Source: Escherichia coli (GTDB lineage Bacteria > Pseudomonadota > Gammaproteobacteria > Enterobacterales > Enterobacteriaceae). Taken from it: a stretch of 64,000 nucleotides of DNA. Positions 2,903 through 54,128 of this stretch are shown in pieces (the stretch's first letter is position 1; each line of letters starts with the position of its first letter). The notes beneath the pieces were generated by a model. The model made no database searches. It had not been told where the DNA came from and saw only the letters and a list, made by a program, of their open reading frames with translations. The stretch lies in NCBI RefSeq assembly GCF_013315695.1, contig NZ_CP054353.1; one strand, given 5' to 3'. A program made the translations under genes and the position numbers.

Positions 2903-5900
2903 GCCAGCATTTACCTTTGGTCGCCGCACAGCCCGGCATCTGGATGGCAGAAAAACTGTCAGATTTACCCTCCGCCTGGAGCGTGGCGCATTACGTTGAG
3001 TTAACCGGAGAGGTTGATGCGCCATTACTGGCCCGCGCGGTGGTTGCCGGATTAGCGCAAGCAGATACGCTGCGGATGCGTTTTACGGAAGATAACGGCG
3101 AAGTCTGGCAGTGGGTCGATGATGCGCTGACGTTCGAACTGCCAGAAATTATCGACCTGCGAACCAACATTGATCCGCACGGTACTGCGCGGGCATTAAT
3201 GCAGGCGGATTTGCAACAAGATCTGCGCGTCGATAGCGGTAAACCACTGGTCTTTCATCAGTTGATACAGGTGGCGGATAACCGCTGGTACTGGTATCAG
3301 CGTTATCACCATTTGCTGGTCGATGGCTTCAGTTTCCCGGCCATTACCCGCCAGATCGCCAATATTTACTGCGCATGGCTGCGTGGCGAACCAACGCCTG
3401 CTTCGCCGTTTACGCCTTTCGCTGATGTAGTGGAAGAGTACCAGCAATACCGCGAAAGCGAAGCCTGGCAGCGTGATGCGGCATTCTGGGCGGAACAGCG
3501 TCGTCAATTGCCGCCGCCCGCGTCACTTTCTCCGGCACCTTTACCGGGGCGCAGCGCCTCGGCAGATATTCTGCGCCTGAAACTGGAATTTACCGACGGG
3601 GAATTCCGCCAGTTGGCTACGCAACTTTCAGGTGTGCAGCGTACCGATTTAGCCCTTGCGTTGGCAGCCTTGTGGCTGGGGCGATTGTGCAACCGCATGG
3701 ACTACGCTGCCGGATTTATCTTTATGCGTCGACTGGGCTCGGCGGCGCTGACGGCTACCGGACCCGTGCTCAACGTTTTGCCGTTGGGTATTCACATTGC
3801 GGCGCAAGAAACGCTGCCGCAACTGGCAACCCGACTGGCAGCACAACTGAAAAAAATGCGCCGCCATCAACGCTACGACGCCGAACAAATTGTCCGTGAC
3901 AGTGGGCGAGCGGCAGGAGAGGAACCGCTGTTCGGTCCGGTACTCAATATCAAGGTATTTGATTACCAACTGGATATTCCTGGTGTTCAGGCGCAAACCC
4001 ATACCCTGGCAACCGGTCCGGTTAATGACCTTGAACTGGCCCTGTTCCCGGATGAACACGGTGATTTGAGTATTGAGATCCTCGCCAATAAACAGCGTTA
4101 CGATGAGCCAACGTTAATTCAACACGCTGAACGCCTGAAAATGCTGATTGCGCAGTTCGCCGCGGATCCGTCGCTGTTGTGCGGCGATGTCGATATTATG
4201 CTGCCAGGCGAGTATGCGCAGCTGGCGCAGATCAACGCCACTCAGGTTGAGATTCCAGAAACCACGCTGAGCGCGCTGGTGGCAGAAAAAGCGGCAAAAA
4301 CACCGGATGCTCCGGCGCTGGCAGATGCGCGCTACCAGTTCAGCTATCGGGAAATGCGCGAGCAGGTAGTGGCGCTGGCAAATCTCCTGCGTGAGCGTGG
4401 CGTTAAACCGGGCGACAGCGTAGCGGTGGCGCTACCGCGCTCGGTCTTTTTGACTCTGGCGCTACATGCAATTGTTGAGGCTGGTGCGGCCTGGTTACCG
4501 CTGGATACCGGCTATCCGGACGATCGCCTGAAAATGATGCTGGAAGATGCGCGTCCGTCGCTGTTAATCACCACTGACGATCAACTGCCGCGCTTTGCCG
4601 ATGTTCCAGATTTAACCCGCCTTTGCTATAACGCCCCGCTTACACCGCAGGGCAGTGCGCCGCTGCAGCTTTCACAACCGCACCACACGGCTTATATCAT
4701 CTTCACCTCCGGTTCCACCGGCAGACCAAAAGGGGTAATGGTCGGGCAGACGGCTATCGTTAATCGCCTGCTTTGGATGCAAAACCATTACCCGCTTACA
4801 GGCGAAGATGTCGTTGCCCAAAAAACGCCGTGCAGTTTTGATGTCTCGGTGTGGGAGTTTTTCTGGCCGTTTATTGCCGGGGCTAAACTGGTGATGGCTG
4901 AACCGGAAGCGCACCGCGACCCGCTCGCTATGCAGCAATTCTTTGCCGAATATGGTGTAACGACCACGCACTTTGTGCCGTCGATGCTGGCGGCATTTGT
5001 TGCATCGCTGACGCCGCAAACCGCTCGCCAGAGTTGCGCGACGTTGAAACAGGTTTTCTGTAGTGGTGAAGCCTTACCGGCTGATTTATGCCGCGAATGG
5101 CAACAGTTAACCGGCGCGCCGTTGCATAATCTATATGGCCCGACGGAAGCGGCGGTAGATGTCAGTTGGTATCCGGCTTTTGGCGAGGAACTGGCAGAGG
5201 TGCGCGGCAGCAGTGTGCCGATTGGTTATCCGGTGTGGAATACGGGCCTGCGCATTCTCGATGCGATGATGCATCCGGTGCCGCCGGGTGTGGCGGGAGA
5301 TCTCTATCTCACCGGTATTCAACTGGCGCAGGGGTATCTTGGACGACCCGATCTGACCGCCAGCTGCTTTATTGCCGATCCTTTTGCCCCAGGTGAACGG
5401 ATGTACCGTACCGGCGATGTGGCCCGCTGGCTGGATAACGGCGCAGTGGAGTACCTCGGGCGCAGTGACGATCAGCTAAAAATTCGCGGGCAGCGTATCG
5501 AACTGGGCGAAATTGATCGCGTGATGCAGGCGCTGCCGGATGTCGAACAAGCCGTTACCCACGCCTGTGTGATTAACCAGGCGGCAGCCACTGGTGGTGA
5601 TGCGCGTCAGTTGGTGGGCTATCTGGTGTCGCAATCAGGTCTGCCGTTGGATACCAGCGCATTACAGGCGCAGCTTCGTGAAACATTGCCACCACATATG
5701 GTACCGGTGGTTCTGCTGCAACTTCCACAGTTACCACTTAGCGCCAACGGCAAGCTGGATCGCAAAGCCTTACCGTTGCCTGAACTGAAGGCACAAGCGC
5801 CTGGGCGTGCGCCGAAAGCGGGCAGTGAAACGATTATCGCCGCGGCATTCTCGTCGTTGCTGGGTTGTGACGTGCAGGATGCCGATGCTGATTTCTTTGC

Positions 5901-47458: not shown

Positions 47459-48412
47459 TCAAAATGCATTCCGGATAACATCTATTACCCCGTGCAGGAT
47501 GGGATCACGCAGGCTGAATTTGTTGTAGTGGATAGAGAAATCTATTTGCTCCTCATTTAAGGACGGAAAAGGCAGTTTTTCCAGCGGCCAGCAACGGCTA
47601 AACAGGTTATAAAAACGGCTGGGAATAATCGCTAACATGTCACTGTTGGCAACCAGTGCAGCGATTGTCAAAATGTTGTAGCTGGTGAAACTGATTTGCC
47701 GGTCCGGAAACATCTCTTGAACTCTCTGCCGCAGACCGCTGAAATTTTGCCCTTCCGGTAACAGGAGTATATGCGCAGCGTTGTCGATAGTCTCTCTGTC
47801 ATCTTCTAAAGAGAGTAGCGGATTTCCCTCGCGGCAAATTAACACCATATTGTCGGTGAACAGAACATGATGTTGCACCGTACGATTGGTGCAAAACATG
47901 TTATCGATGATGAGATCGGTTTGAAACTGACTGAGTTGGTTTTCCGCGTCGCTGATGGGTGGGTTGCGCAGTAAAAGCTGCGGATAGTGAGATTTAATCG
48001 CCCGATAGATGACAGGAAGGACTAGGGCTCCGACCGAGGGGGTGGTCGCAATAGTTATCGTTCGTTGCTTATCATAGCTTCCTTCGATATCCAGCGCGCC
48101 AAGAATGGACTCAAGGCCCTGACTGATATACTCATGTAGATGCATCGCAAATGCGGTAGGAGTGACACCCTGGCCTTTGCGAATAAACAATGGGTCAGGG
48201 AATATAACGCGCAGTTTCTGAATAGACTGACTGATTGCCGAGGGTGTCAGATTAAGCACTTTCGCTGCATTAACGATCCCTTTATGTACATATACAGCTT
48301 CAAAAATAGTCAGAAGGTTAAGATCAATATTTCGTAAGGTTGTAAATATTTGTGGTTTACCTTCTGACGACTTTCTGCTTAAACAGGTTTCAATTTGATT
48401 ATTACTATCCAC
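47459..48412 (-). CDS. ybeF: LysR-family transcriptional regulator YbeF
   Basis: 317-aa ORF with N-terminal HTH (…LNLLTIFEAVYVHKGIVNAAKVLNLTPSAISQSIQKLR…). Confidence 0.88.
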   Translation of the reverse strand: MDSNNQIETCLSRKSSEGKPQIFTTLRNIDLNLLTIFEAVYVHKGIVNAAKVLNLTPSAISQSIQKLRVIFPDPLFIRKGQGVTPTAFAMHLHEYISQGLESILGALDIEGSYDKQRTITIATTPSVGALVLPVIYRAIKSHYPQLLLRNPPISDAENQLSQFQTDLIIDNMFCTNRTVQHHVLFTDNMVLICREGNPLLSLEDDRETIDNAAHILLLPEGQNFSGLRQRVQEMFPDRQISFTSYNILTIAALVANSDMLAIIPSRFYNLFSRCWPLEKLPFPSLNEEQIDFSIHYNKFSLRDPILHGVIDVIRNAF

Positions 48413-48569
48413 GCACTTACTCCAATTTTATTCATGGAAAAATAATATTAAAAAAAATTACAATAATCTTATGTCTAATTGGAACGGAACGCTTTTGCTC
48501 ACCATAATCAACTATTTCAATAAGTTAATCAATGGGGTGAGTTACGGAGCAAGGCGTAGCATCGCATTT

Positions 48570-48578
48570 CTGCAAGTG
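48570..48578. repeat. Left copy of the 9-bp target-site duplication (ctgcaagtg) flanking IS1
   Basis: Identical 9-mer immediately outside each IS1 end. Confidence 0.85.
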
Positions 48579-48633
48579 GGTGATGCTGCCAACTTACTGA
48601 TTTAGTGTATGATGGTGTTTTTGAGGTGCTCCA

Positions 48634-48909
48634 GTGGCTTCTGTTTCTATCAGCTGTCCCTCCTGTTCAGCTACTGACGGGGTGGTGCGTAACGGCAAAA
48701 GCACCGCCGGACATCAGCGCTATCTCTGCTCTCACTGCCGTAAAACATGGCAACTGCAGTTCACTTACACCGCTTCTCAACCCGGTACGCACCAGAAAAT
48801 CATTGATATGGCCATGAATGGCGTTGGATGCCGGGCAACAGCCCGCATTATGGGCGTTGGCCTCAACACGATTTTACGTCACTTAAAAAACTCAGGCCGC
48901 AGTCGGTAA
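48634..48909 (+). CDS. insA: IS1 InsA (transposition repressor / N-terminal part of the InsAB' transposase)
   Basis: [94 protein letters not shown] start. Confidence 0.95.
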
Positions 48910-49331
48910 CCTCGCGCATACAGCCGGGCAGTGACGTCATCGTCTGCGCGGAAATGGACGAACAGTGGGGCTATGTCGGGGCTAAATCGCGCCAGCGCTG
49001 GCTGTTTTACGCGTATGACAGGCTCCGGAAGACGGTTGTTGCGCACGTATTCGGTGAACGCACTATGGCGACGCTGGGGCGTCTTATGAGCCTGCTGTCA
49101 CCCTTTGACGTGGTGATATGGATGACGGATGGCTGGCCGCTGTATGAATCCCGCCTGAAGGGAAAGCTGCACGTAATCAGCAAGCGATATACGCAGCGAA
49201 TTGAGCGGCATAACCTGAATCTGAGGCAGCACCTGGCACGGCTGGGACGGAAGTCGCTGTCGTTCTCAAAATCGGTGGAGCTGCATGACAAAGTCATCGG
49301 GCATTATCTGAACATAAAACACTATCAATAA
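48828..49331 (+). CDS. insB: IS1 InsB frame; the functional transposase InsAB' is made by a -1 ribosomal frameshift from insA
   Basis: 167-aa [67 protein letters not shown]…. Confidence 0.9.
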
Positions 49332-49346
49332 GTTGGAGTCATTACC

Positions 49347-49355
49347 CTGCAAGTG
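49347..49355. repeat. Right copy of the 9-bp target-site duplication (ctgcaagtg) flanking IS1
   Basis: Identical to 48570-48578. Confidence 0.85.
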
Positions 49356-49448
49356 ATAAAGAAAATAAACAAACGCGAAGGAGATGTAAAGCATTAGCAG
49401 GTATTATGAGTAATGACCCAGTGTAAATTGGGCCATTGATGTATGCAA

Positions 49449-50090
49449 TTAAGCGGTAATATATTCGAAGTCAGGATTGTTTAGTAGCGCTAAAATATTT
49501 TCCAGTAAACGCGGTGCAATATTATTAGTCGTCGCTTCGGGTTTCCATTGTGATATTTTAGCCATTTCCATTCCGGCATACCCACAAGGATTAATACGTA
49601 AAAATGGTGAAAGATCCATATTGACGTTTAATGCCAGACCGTGGAATGAACAACCGCGTCGAATACGTAAACCCAGTGAGCAAATTTTCTTTTCCCCGAC
49701 ATAGACACCAGGCGCGTCAGCCCGAGGATGCGCTTCTATACCCAGTTCAGCCAGGGTATTCACCACTGTTTGCTCAAGCAAGGTCACCAGTTCACGCACA
49801 CCGAGTTTACGGCGTTTCAGGTTAAGCAACACATACATCACCTGTTGCCCCGGCCCGTGATAAGTCACCTGCCCACCGCGATCGCTCTGAATTACCGGAA
49901 TATCACCCGGCATTAAAATGTGCTCCGCTTTTCCTGCCTGCCCTTGGGTAAATACCGGATAGTGCTCGACCAGCCAGATTTCATCAAGGGTACTTTCATC
50001 GCGGGTATCGGTGAATTCATGCATAGCCTGGGAGATTGGCTCGTAAGGCTGAAGACCGAGCTGGCGGACAAGAATTTTATCCTGATACAA
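49449..50090 (-). CDS. lipB: Octanoyltransferase LipB
   Basis: 213-aa [57 protein letters not shown]…. Confidence 0.93.
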
Positions 50091-50190
50091 AACGGCATCT
50101 CCGTGGAGAATGAGTAAAAGTGGGGGAAAAGTATATCACAGCGAGGAGAGGGGAGTTACCCGACCAGGAGCCGGGTAACGGAGAAGCGAG

Positions 50191-50454
50191 TTACAGAACC
50201 ATGCGGACAATATCGATTTTGCCCAGTTCTTCATACAGTGTTTCAACCTGCTCGATATGAGTAGCGTTGATAGTGATAGATACCGAGTGGTAGTTGCCTT
50301 TGCTGCTTGGTTTTACCGTTGGGGTGTAGTCACCTGGCGCATGGCGCTGTACCACTTCAACCACCTGATCAACCAGCTCAGGTAACGCCTGCCCCATAAC
50401 TTTGTAAGTAAAAGGAGTAGGGAATTCAAGCAGTTCGTTAAGTTTGGTTTTCAT
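50191..50454 (-). CDS. ybeD: UPF0250 protein YbeD
   Basis: 87-aa [90 protein letters not shown]. Confidence 0.92.
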
Positions 50455-50484
50455 GTCAGCTCCGGCGTAACGTAATTAAATAGC

Positions 50485-50512
50485 AACTCCCGCCAGAAGG
50501 CGGGAGTTTTTT
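50485..50512. terminator. Strong hairpin between dacA and ybeD; terminator-like on both strands, with the T-run perfect on the + strand
   Basis: aactcccgcc-agaa-ggcgggagtt followed by tttttt on the + strand; on the reverse strand it is followed by gctatttaatt. Confidence 0.6.
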
Positions 50513-50563
50513 ACTGATGCTTAGTATATGGGGACGGAAATTACACTTTCAAGTGTTCGATTT

Positions 50564-51775
50564 TTAACCAAACCAGTGATGGAACATTAATTTAATGTAA
50601 TCAATGATTTTGCCGAAGAAGTTGCCTTCCGGGATTTCTTGCAGCACAACCAGCGGGCGTTGTTCGATCGTTTTGCCATCAAGCTGGAAGTTGATAGTAC
50701 CGACGACCTGATTCTTTTGCAGCGGCGCATGCAATTCACTACTGTTCAGCACATAGCTGGCTTTCAGATCTTTCATGCGGCCACGCGGAATGGTCAGATA
50801 CACGTCTTTATCAACACCTAACGAAGCGCGATCAGAATCACCAAACCAAACCGGTTCAGAGGCGAACTCTTTACCTACTTTCAGTGGGTTAACGGTTTCG
50901 AAGAAACGGAAGCCCCAGGTTAGCAGTTTTTTACTTTCGGCTTCACGGCCTTTAAAAGTACGTCCGCCCATCACCGCAGAGATCAAGCGCATCTGGCCTT
51001 CAGTCGCAGAAGCAACAAGGTTGTAACCTGCTTTGTCAGTGTGTCCGGTTTTGATGCCGTCGACATTCAGGCTGTTATCCCATAACAGGCCGTTACGGTT
51101 CAGCTGGCGAATACCGTTAAACGTAAATTCTTTTTCTTTATAGATCGAGTATTCATTCGGTACGTCACGGATCAACGCCTGGCCGATCAGCGCCATATCT
51201 CGCGCGGAGCTGTACTGACCATCAGCATCCAGACCATGTACCGTCTGGAAGTGGGTATTTTTCAGGCCCAGTGCGTTAACGTAGCTGTTCATCAAGCCAA
51301 CAAAAGCGTCCTGGCTACCAGCGGCAAAATCGGCCATGGCGACACAAGCATCGTTACCCGATTGCAGGTTAATACCGCGGATTAGCTGAGAAACCGGAAC
51401 CTGCATGCCCGGTTTGAGGAACATTAGTGAAGAACCTTTAAACACCGGGTTACCGGTGGCCCATGCGTCGTTGCCGATAGTGACTAAATCAGTTTCTTTA
51501 AATTTACCGGCTTTCATTGCCTGGCCGATAACGTAACTGGTCATCATTTTGGTCAGGCTGGCAGGATCGCGGCGGACATCTGCGTTCTGTTCGGCGAGCA
51601 CTTTGCCGGAGTTATAGTCAATCAGGATGTAGGACTCCGCATCGATCTGCGGTACACCCGGGATCATAGTTTTGATATTCAGGTCATCGGCATGTGCAGC
51701 AGAGATAAAGGCTGTGCAAAGAGCCGTGGTGAGCGCCAGGCGCTTCATGATACGAGCGGAAAAAATGGTATTCAT
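50564..51775 (-). CDS. dacA: D-alanyl-D-alanine carboxypeptidase DacA (PBP5)
   Basis: 403-aa ORF with signal peptide; SxxK (SLTK), SGN and KTG motifs present. Confidence 0.95.
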
Positions 51776-51914
51776 GGTCTGAACTACGACATCCGTGATG
51801 GAATTAAAAAAAGTGCCCTACTATAGCAAATGCACTACCGGCAGGCATCTGACTTTCCGCGTGACTTTGTTAACGTCATTTACAGAAATTGACACATCAG
51901 ATGCCTGCTTTACG

Positions 51915-53003
51915 CTACTGCGCGGTGGTAATAAATGACTGTAATTGGGCTTCGGTTTGCAAACGTTGCTGCAAGGTACTGGCTTCGGCTTTGCTGGCGA
52001 ATGGGCCAAGCTGGATCCGCCAGACTGCGCCATTTTGAGTTACGCGACCGGGGACGCCGAACTTCTGTCCCAGTTGCTGTTGGTACTGTTGCGCACGAGC
52101 CTGATCGCTAACGGCCCCGACTTGCACCATAAAGTTGCCGCTGGCGCTTTGCGAGGCGGCTTGCGGTGTCACCATTGCAGGCGAGGTTGCAAGCGTTGTC
52201 GACGGAGCTGTAACAACGGGCTGTGGTGCAGGCGTTGGTTCGCTGCCTTCCAGAACACCAGGCGCTAAGGTCGTTGGTGCGCCGAGGAAACCGCTGCTGG
52301 TTACCGGCGCGCCAGTCGGATCTTCGCTTTTTAGCGTCGAATTACTGACCGGAAGAATGTCACCCTGCGGGCCAGACACTGAACTTGTTCCCGCGCCACC
52401 GCTTAAATCGGGAGGTGCAGGCAGGGCGTAAGTCTGTTTGGCAACTGTGGTACAAGCCATACCAGGACCAGAAAGCGAACCATCCTGGGCGACAATAATC
52501 GGATCGATACGAACTTTGGTGTTGTTTGACGTGTTAAGACGGTCAGCTGCCGCGCGAGAAAGCGAAATAACGCGGTCGTTGCCGTAAGGACCGCGATCAT
52601 TAATGCGCACCACGATCATTCGCCCGTTAGCCAGGTTAGTGATTCTGGCGTAGCTGGGGATCGGAAGCGTTGGATGGGCCGCCGTCAACTGTGTCGGATC
52701 GAAAGCTTCGCCAGAGGCCGTCAGGTTACTGCCGGGTTCGGCATCATAGATTGCCGCCAGTCCCGCCTGGCTAAATCGAGACGGATCCTGCACGATTTTG
52801 TAGCTTTTACCGTCGCGCTGGTAATCCTGATTTGCCGTCGCGTTCAGTGGTTCGAAACGCGGGTCCGCCCCGCTAATTTCAACTATGGGGCCGTTACATA
52901 CCGCAGGCTGCGGTACACTTACCGTCTGTTGCTGACCATCATCGCTTGTACATGCCGCGAGCATTCCTGCCGCGATGCAGATCCCGAGCCACTGCTTACG
53001 CAT
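51915..53003 (-). CDS. rlpA: Rare lipoprotein A RlpA (lytic transglycosylase with SPOR domain)
   Basis: 362-aa ORF MRKQWLGICIAAGMLAACTSDD… (lipobox), Pro/Thr/Ser-rich linker. Confidence 0.93.
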   Translation of the reverse strand: MRKQWLGICIAAGMLAACTSDDGQQQTVSVPQPAVCNGPIVEISGADPRFEPLNATANQDYQRDGKSYKIVQDPSRFSQAGLAAIYDAEPGSNLTASGEAFDPTQLTAAHPTLPIPSYARITNLANGRMIVVRINDRGPYGNDRVISLSRAAADRLNTSNNTKVRIDPIIVAQDGSLSGPGMACTTVAKQTYALPAPPDLSGGAGTSSVSGPQGDILPVSNSTLKSEDPTGAPVTSSGFLGAPTTLAPGVLEGSEPTPAPQPVVTAPSTTLATSPAMVTPQAASQSASGNFMVQVGAVSDQARAQQYQQQLGQKFGVPGRVTQNGAVWRIQLGPFASKAEASTLQQRLQTEAQLQSFITTAQ

Positions 53004-53013
53004 TGCGCACCTC

Positions 53014-54126
53014 TTACACGCTTTTCGACAACATTTTCCTGTGGGTGTGGATTGACATTACAATCCCGAACCCAGCCATCAGCACAATTAGCGCCGATCC
53101 TCCATAACTGACCAGTGGGAGCGGAACCCCTACAACCGGCAGAATACCGCTTACCATACCAATATTTACGAAGACATAAACGAATAATATCAGCATTAAG
53201 CCGCCAGCCATGACGCGACCAAAGGTGGTTTGCGCTCTGGCGGCTATCCACAGCCCGCGCATGATCAGCAGAATGTAAAGAGCGAGCAGAATCAAAATGC
53301 CCACTAATCCCAGCTCTTCCGCCAGTACCGCGAAGATAAAGTCGGTATGGCGTTCGGGGAGAAATTCAAGCTGTGACTGAGTACCGTGCAGCCAGCCTTT
53401 GCCGCGTAATCCGCCGGAGCCAATAGCAATTTTAGATTGAATAATATGATAGCCCGCGCCGAGTGGGTCTGATTCCGGGTCCAGGAGCATCATTACGCGC
53501 TGGCGCTGGTAATCATGCATCAGGAAGAACCACAGAATCGGAATGAACGCCGCTACCAGCACTACTGCGACGCCAATCAGACGCCAGCTAAGGCCAGAGA
53601 GGAACAGTACAAACAGGCCGGAAAGCGCAACGAGGATTGATGTTCCCAGGTCAGGCTGTGCAGCCACCAGCAGCGTGGGCATAAATATCAGCACCAGCGC
53701 GATAGCTGTATTCTTCAATGAAGGTGGGCAAACGTCGCGGTTGATAAAGCGTGCAACCATCAACGGTACGGCTATCTTGGCAATTTCCGACGGTTGAAAA
53801 CGAACAATACCGAGGTCCAGCCAGCGTTGAGCGCCTTTAGAGATGGCACCGAAAGCATCTACCGCCACCAGCAAAATAATACAGATGATATAGAGATAGG
53901 GGGCCCAGCCTTCATAAACGCGTGGAGGAATTTGCGCCATCACCACCATGATGACCAGACCCATCGCAATCTGGCCGATTTTACGCTCCATCATGCCAAT
54001 ATCCTGACCGCTGGCGCTCCAGATAACCAGGGCGCTGTAAACCAGCAATGCCAGTAAGATCAGCAGCATTGTGGGATCGAGATGGACTTTATCCCAGAAT
54101 GTTTTTTTATTCGGATTATCCGTCAT
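53014..54126 (-). CDS. mrdB: Peptidoglycan glycosyltransferase RodA (SEDS family)
   Basis: 370-aa polytopic membrane [44 protein letters not shown]…. Confidence 0.95.
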
Positions 54127-54128
54127 GA

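Follow-up and report, generated by a model that had tools for sequence, protein, structure and literature searches.

The presence of an insertion sequence between lipB and ybeF in a 64,000-nucleotide stretch of Escherichia coli DNA (hereafter the window, to which all coordinates refer) raises the questions of how the element arrived at this position, how widely the insertion is shared among strains, whether the site is in any way a favoured target, and what consequences it may have for the expression of ybeF.

The element and its surroundings

Members of IS1 are described as 768 bp long with inverted repeats of approximately 30 bp, insA and insB genes, a frameshift at an A6C motif and a 232-residue InsAB' product, and as generating target duplications of either 8 or 9 bp (PMC12428005). 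The element in the window has the same 768-bp length, inverted repeats, insA/insB layout and A6C motif as IS1A of MG1655, to which IS1E is identical, and since all of the defining features that were tested are present, it is an IS1A-type member of the IS1 family (Table 1). Its ends, as read from the sequence, are GGTGATGCTGCCAACTTACTGAT... and ...ATCAATAAGTTGGAGTCATTACC, and these form imperfect terminal inverted repeats for which a repeat finder applied to the window reports 24-nt arms with 79% complementarity. The A6C motif of IS1 is contained in TTAAAAAAC at 48883-48891, and the 232-residue InsAB' sequence, assembled by hand as a fusion across this motif, matches the equivalog model NF033558 ('IS1 family transposase') along the whole of the profile (positions 1-199 of 199) at a score of 245 bits (cut-off 100). 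The insA product scores 41 bits (cut-off 28) against the NCBIfam model of the IS1/IS1595 zinc-binding domain. Two public genomes that carry the same copy, MSB1_4I and AF3, are annotated in RefSeq with an 'IS1-like element IS1A family transposase, programmed frameshift', and in MSB1_4I this coding sequence (WP_103215986.1) has the same coordinates as insAB'.

Only one base distinguishes the element from MG1655 IS1A over the 768 bp compared. It lies at IS1 position 444 (window 49022), where MG1655 has a T and the window a G, with the change of a single residue in the InsB part (DRLRK in the window). InsAB' of the window consequently departs from that of K-12 by one residue and is identical to WP_103215986.1, a widespread RefSeq protein; the same variant is encoded by copies occupying independent sites elsewhere, in SBF22, Z226-5, TW10573 and Res13. 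A sigma-70-like scan reports a promoter-like CTGCCA-16-TATGAT at 48586-48613 on the + strand, coincident with PIS1 as placed by others (PMC12428005). The IS1A/IS1E sequence type is responsible for >99.9% of IS1 transposition in K-12 (PMC12428005), and the copy in the window would, by its sequence, be of the active type.

Table 1. Coordinates of the IS1 element, its target duplication and neighbouring genes in the window, and window-equivalent coordinates of IS1 insertions in other strains.
Feature	Coordinates	Strand	Basis or remarks
ybeF, LysR-type regulator, 317 aa	47459..48412	-	ORF, annotation, NF008554; GTG start at 48412; downstream of insertion on - strand
Target-site duplication (9 bp), left copy, CTGCAAGTG	48570..48578		Abuts IS1 left end
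Complete IS1, IS1A type, 768 bp	48579..49346	+	767/768 identical to MG1655 IS1A
IRL, left terminal inverted repeat	48579..48601	+	Repeat finder; overlaps weak transposase promoter
insA, 91 aa, zinc-finger and HTH repressor, N-terminal part of transposase	48634..48909	+	ORF
insAB', transframe transposase, 232 aa after -1 shift	48634..49331	+	NF033558; RefSeq CDS
insB frame, 167 aa	48828..49331	+	ORF; -1 phase relative to insA, overlapping
A6C slippery motif AAAAAAC, programmed -1 frameshift	48885..48891	+	Sequence; RefSeq annotation of identical copy
IRR, right terminal inverted repeat	49324..49346	+	Repeat finder
Target-site duplication (9 bp), right copy, CTGCAAGTG	49347..49355		Abuts IS1 right end
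lipB	49449..50090	-	ORF, annotation; stop codon 49449-51; upstream of insertion on - strand
IS1 site in other strains	48112-19		NT1F10 clone
IS1 site in other strains	48225-33		Z226-5
IS1 site in other strains	48231-38		TW10573
IS1 site in other strains	48233-40		1008S13
IS1 site in other strains	48272-80		F138 and AW1.7
IS1 site in other strains	48280-87		ET670, second copy
IS1 site in other strains	48405-12		SBF22, on ybeF start codon
IS1 site in other strains	48409-17		WP4-S17-ESBL-08 clone, 14 genomes
IS1 site in other strains	48453-60		STEC346
IS1 site in other strains	48461-69		ECCTRSRTH03
IS1 site in other strains	48565-72		ET745 and ET670
IS1 site in other strains	49426-34		Res13-Lact
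Deletion-associated junctions	48459, 49359, 48444		Remaining 3 of the 15 positions

The GTG start of ybeF is supported by an end-to-end match of its product to the 'YbeF family' model NF008554 (profile 1-317 of 317, 612 bits), and the left end of IS1 is 166 nt from this codon; the right end is 102 nt from the lipB stop codon, or 93 nt if the distance is taken from the duplication. The transposase gene is antiparallel to both lipB and ybeF, with IRL facing ybeF. Devoid of IS1, the lipB-ybeF spacer would be 259 bp long with a G+C content of 34%, as against 52% for the window. BLAST of IS1 against the 64 kb found no second or partial copy, and the RefSeq annotation of the near-identical stretch of MSB1_4I contains one transposase coding sequence in 64 kb. 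The original prediction of a complete 768-bp IS1 with both inverted repeats, insA, insB and the A6C motif is thus upheld by the sequence, the open reading frames and the NF033558 match; its placing of the element 166 bp from the start of ybeF and about 100 bp from the lipB stop agrees with the measured distances, as does its description of the element as the only insertion sequence in 64 kb with the annotation. Its further claim, that ybeF has been cut off from its native upstream region, also holds, in that IS1 stands between ybeF on one side and lipB and the 93 nt upstream on the other. We considered whether IS1 disrupts an RNA element in the spacer and rejected this, as no structured RNA was found between 47200 and 50300 by comparison with Rfam (E <= 1).

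Target duplication, empty site and descent

Exactly two copies of CTGCAAGTG are present in the 64-kb window, and both adjoin the ends of IS1. Two occurrences of a 9-mer in 64 kb are not unusual, being seen in 13 of 100 shuffles, and it is the position of the two copies and the presence of just one at the empty site, rather than the count alone, that identify them as a true target-site duplication. The empty site, with one CTGCAAGTG in the same context, is present once in AF14 and once in MG1655. AF14 (NZ_OZ546925.1) aligns with window positions 13223-48578 and 49347-64000 in two blocks whose overlap in AF14 is exactly 9 bases; over 50 kb the two sequences differ by 25 substitutions and one indel (99.95% identity).

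A different origin would be recombination of one IS1 with another, or a rearrangement mediated by IS1, such as an inversion, a deletion or the resolution of a cointegrate. Products of this type are present at the same locus in LST200A and EC6622, where approximately 120 bp are missing and there is no duplication, and the clone to which the window belongs is rich in IS1. However, both flanks of the window element are collinear with the empty site, exactly nine bases are duplicated with nothing missing, and genes are arranged across the 64 kb as they are in AF14 and MG1655; neither non-matching flanks nor an absent duplication, the signs of rearrangement for which we tested, are seen. Such an origin is accordingly very improbable.

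A probe of 400 bases spanning the left junction was matched in one piece and over its full length in 2/5426 complete E. coli genomes, MSB1_4I and AF3, among the matches listed, whereas a 200-bp probe for the empty site is uninterrupted (at least 80% covered) in 5371/5426. MSB1_4I (NZ_LR898874.1) is from a rectal swab in Australia and AF3 (NZ_OZ547117.1) from a blood culture in the UK. MSB1_4I differs from the window at 2 of 64,000 bases (positions 5365 and 30664) and AF3 at one of 8,400 (position 51560), and in both genomes the IS1 copy is 100% identical to that in the window, as are the junctions and the duplication, so that there is no difference at the locus. The window therefore derives from a third isolate or assembly of this clone, nearly identical to the other two. 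Misplacement of a repeat by the assembler might be entertained for an element that is multi-copy in the genome, but two complete genomes, sequenced independently and originating in different countries, show the same junctions base for base, and a perfect duplication of 9 bp is what insertion leaves as its biochemical signature; of the explanations considered, an assembly artefact is the least credible, at the very edge of plausibility.

Judging from these identities, the IS1 between lipB and ybeF in the window, MSB1_4I and AF3 is one event inherited by descent. Because only two of the 5426 genomes share the junction and 5371 have the empty site, we infer that the insertion is confined to a small clone and took place after that clone had split from its AF14-like relatives. 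Simple transposition with a 9-bp duplication had been predicted from the window, together with strain specificity and the absence of an IS1 at this position in K-12 MG1655, and comparison with related genomes had been proposed as the check. All of these expectations are confirmed, by the single CTGCAAGTG in AF14 and MG1655, by the uninterrupted site in the latter, and by the counts of junctions and empty sites given above.

Each of the MSB1_4I and AF3 chromosomes has at least 39 further IS1 matches, where the median is approximately 10 places per genome for IS1-containing probes. The clone thus seems to have an expanded IS1 population, and one copy per 64 kb is therefore unremarkable for it. 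The 200-bp empty-site probe is matched over less than 80% of its length in 53 genomes, of which the mapped IS1 cases account for only about six, the remainder being attributable to other insertions, deletions or divergence, and 15 records carry a match to it in two places. Elsewhere in the window, pagP (43589-44150, + strand) is split by an extra A at 43730 relative to AF14 into open reading frames at 43589-43735 and 43701-44150, and is annotated as 'frameshifted' in MSB1_4I by RefSeq; with pagP split by this one-base insertion, the clone is probably without lipid A palmitoylation by PagP.

We regard it as nearly certain that the insertion arose by simple transposition of IS1 into the lipB-ybeF spacer, at an AT-rich site, in a recent ancestor of the clone. 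In the course of events that we propose, a copy one base removed from K-12 IS1A would have entered the 259-bp, 34% G+C spacer in a recent ancestor of a small human-associated clone represented by the window, MSB1_4I and AF3. InsAB', the product of an infrequent -1 shift of frame at the A6C motif, would have cut the two strands at CTGCAAGTG with a stagger of 9 bp, repair of the gaps then giving the direct repeat, and the choice of site would have followed the regional preference of IS1. The insertion was presumably retained owing to the dispensability of both ybeF and the spacer, and it would now lie between ybeF and both the read-through from ybeD-lipB and the sole promoter-like site on the - strand.

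Other IS1 insertions near ybeF and in AT-rich spacers

IS1 has inserted at this locus on other occasions. At least 15 further distinct positions were identified in other strains within the 5' third of ybeF, its start codon and the upstream spacer (48112 to 49434); these are given in Table 1 as the window-equivalent coordinates of the duplicated bases, and comprise 12 sites with a duplication and three deletion-associated junctions. The insertions belong to the same element family as that in the window, lie in the same AT-rich neighbourhood and have duplications of 8 or 9 bp, but they differ in position, occur in both orientations and are of several sequence types (92.7-100% identity). Many interrupt ybeF or its start codon, whereas the IS1 in the window leaves 166 nt of upstream DNA. 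An apparent bias toward one orientation at ybeF was found to be an artefact of a one-strand probe, and a two-orientation probe recovered both. Copies of IS1 at the locus are also borne by two clones, each represented by 13 to 14 sequenced genomes.

Some of these cases are not simple insertions. In LST200A and EC6622 the left junctions fall at 48459 and 48444, and the right ones at 49359 and 48565, with a single IS1, roughly 120 bp of the spacer missing and no duplication. The junctions in these two strains coincide with insertion sites of other strains (48459/60 and 48565), which suggests either recombination of two IS1 copies with each other or an adjacent deletion mediated by IS1. Two pairs of strains, F138 and AW1.7 (48272-80) and ET745 and ET670 (48565-72), share site, duplication and orientation within the pair, with IS1 copies that are 3-5% different. 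In each pair the site may have been hit twice independently, or else a resident copy may have been converted by another IS1 type.

Regional preference for AT-rich DNA is a known property of IS1. A composite probe, consisting of 600 bp of target with 100 bp of each IS1 end, was applied to three AT-rich spacers. At ybeF-lipB it identified IS1 in at least 44 genomes, MSB1_4I and AF3 not being among the 44; in or adjoining the pagP-dcuC spacer (43051-43650, 31% G+C) it identified IS1 in at least 19 genomes, representing approximately 14 classes by span and orientation; and at the dpiB-citC spacer (38801-39400) it identified IS1 in at least 3 to 4 genomes. Because the comparably AT-rich pagP-dcuC control shows about as many independent events as ybeF-lipB, we rejected the latter as a locus-specific hotspot for IS1. 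The simplest reading of the recurrence is that it reflects the preference for AT-rich DNA together with tolerance of insertion near dispensable genes. Homology of the target to the IS1 ends was likewise rejected as too weak, since the resemblance of a 17-mer at 48510-26 to the right end of IS1, at 14 of 17 positions, is equalled in 6 of 200 shuffles (3%).

The alternative is that the insertion was selected for lowering or abolishing ybeF expression, with lrhA down and FlhDC up, and that the IS1 hits in other strains are parallel adaptive events. It draws on the at least 15 distinct sites that fall in the 5' third, start codon and spacer of ybeF in unrelated strains, on the presence of some of them in clones of 13 to 14 sequenced genomes, and on the finding that deletion of ybeF reduces lrhA 3.5-fold and raises the FlhDC iModulon and regulon (PMC9068703). 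Against this, a pagP-dcuC control of similar A+T content has a similar number of distinct IS1 events (some 14 classes in at least 19 genomes), so that target preference suffices to account for the recurrence, the counts of genomes reflect the sampling of clones and not selection, and the window IS1, at 166 nt from the ybeF start codon, may leave the promoter intact. Selection of this kind therefore appears unlikely, and we give slightly less credence still to the proposition that the recurrence at ybeF represents parallel adaptive knock-downs of YbeF that de-repress flagellar genes through lower lrhA. No paper that names ybeF and IS1 together was found in the literature searched, and the recurrence of IS1 at ybeF, which we attribute to target preference and tolerance, may for this reason be undescribed.

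Possible effect on ybeF and significance of the insertion

An effect of the insertion on ybeF expression is plausible from its position, and depends on where transcription of ybeF begins. The only sigma-70-like site that a scan predicts on the - strand of the spacer is a candidate TTTACA-17-TATTTT at 49362..49390, with a 9/12 match to the consensus, of which shuffles of the region yield approximately two. Were ybeF transcribed from this candidate, IS1 would be located at roughly +1 to +9 of the transcript. Scanning found no terminator-like site between lipB and ybeF, and an operon, ybeD-lipB-ybeF-lipA, is mentioned in the supplement to one paper (PMC4398509). Should either the candidate site or read-through from ybeD-lipB drive ybeF, transcripts would have to cross 768 nt of antisense IS1. 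IS1 is polar in both orientations. If, on the other hand, the promoter of ybeF is located in the 166 nt that remain, no change in expression would be expected.

Activation of a downstream gene is another known outcome. Insertion of IS1 or IS5 upstream can activate flhDC. In one account, the silent bgl operon is activated by IS1 or IS5 through insertion in its AT-rich upstream regulatory region (PMC11043490). The insertion in the window resembles those activating bgl and flhDC in that IS1 lies in an AT-rich region upstream of a gene, but no outward hybrid promoter is predicted for it. We looked for one at the junction of IRL and ybeF, where IRL has a TTGGCA 8 nt from its tip, and rejected it; the hexamers 16-18 nt further on (GAAATG, AAATGC and AATGCG) match TATAAT at no more than two of six positions, and the scan found no - strand promoter-like site spanning the IRL junction, the sole such site being upstream of IS1. 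As IS1 now lies between ybeF and all upstream DNA and no outward promoter is predicted, ybeF transcription is most likely to be reduced or unchanged, in preference to being activated.

The insertion is an ordinary one, of a known element at a site that is already annotated in two public genomes. It provides a clean clonal marker of the MSB1_4I/AF3 lineage and a further sign of the expanded IS1 population of that clone, and may alter the expression of ybeF, a poorly characterised regulator that has been linked to citrate-lyase gene clusters and to flagellar regulation. If the insertions near ybeF were adaptive after all, then ybeF would be a recurrent natural target of regulatory evolution mediated by insertion sequences. 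The survey presented here offers a small, controlled illustration that AT-rich spacers beside dispensable genes gather IS1 repeatedly in natural E. coli.
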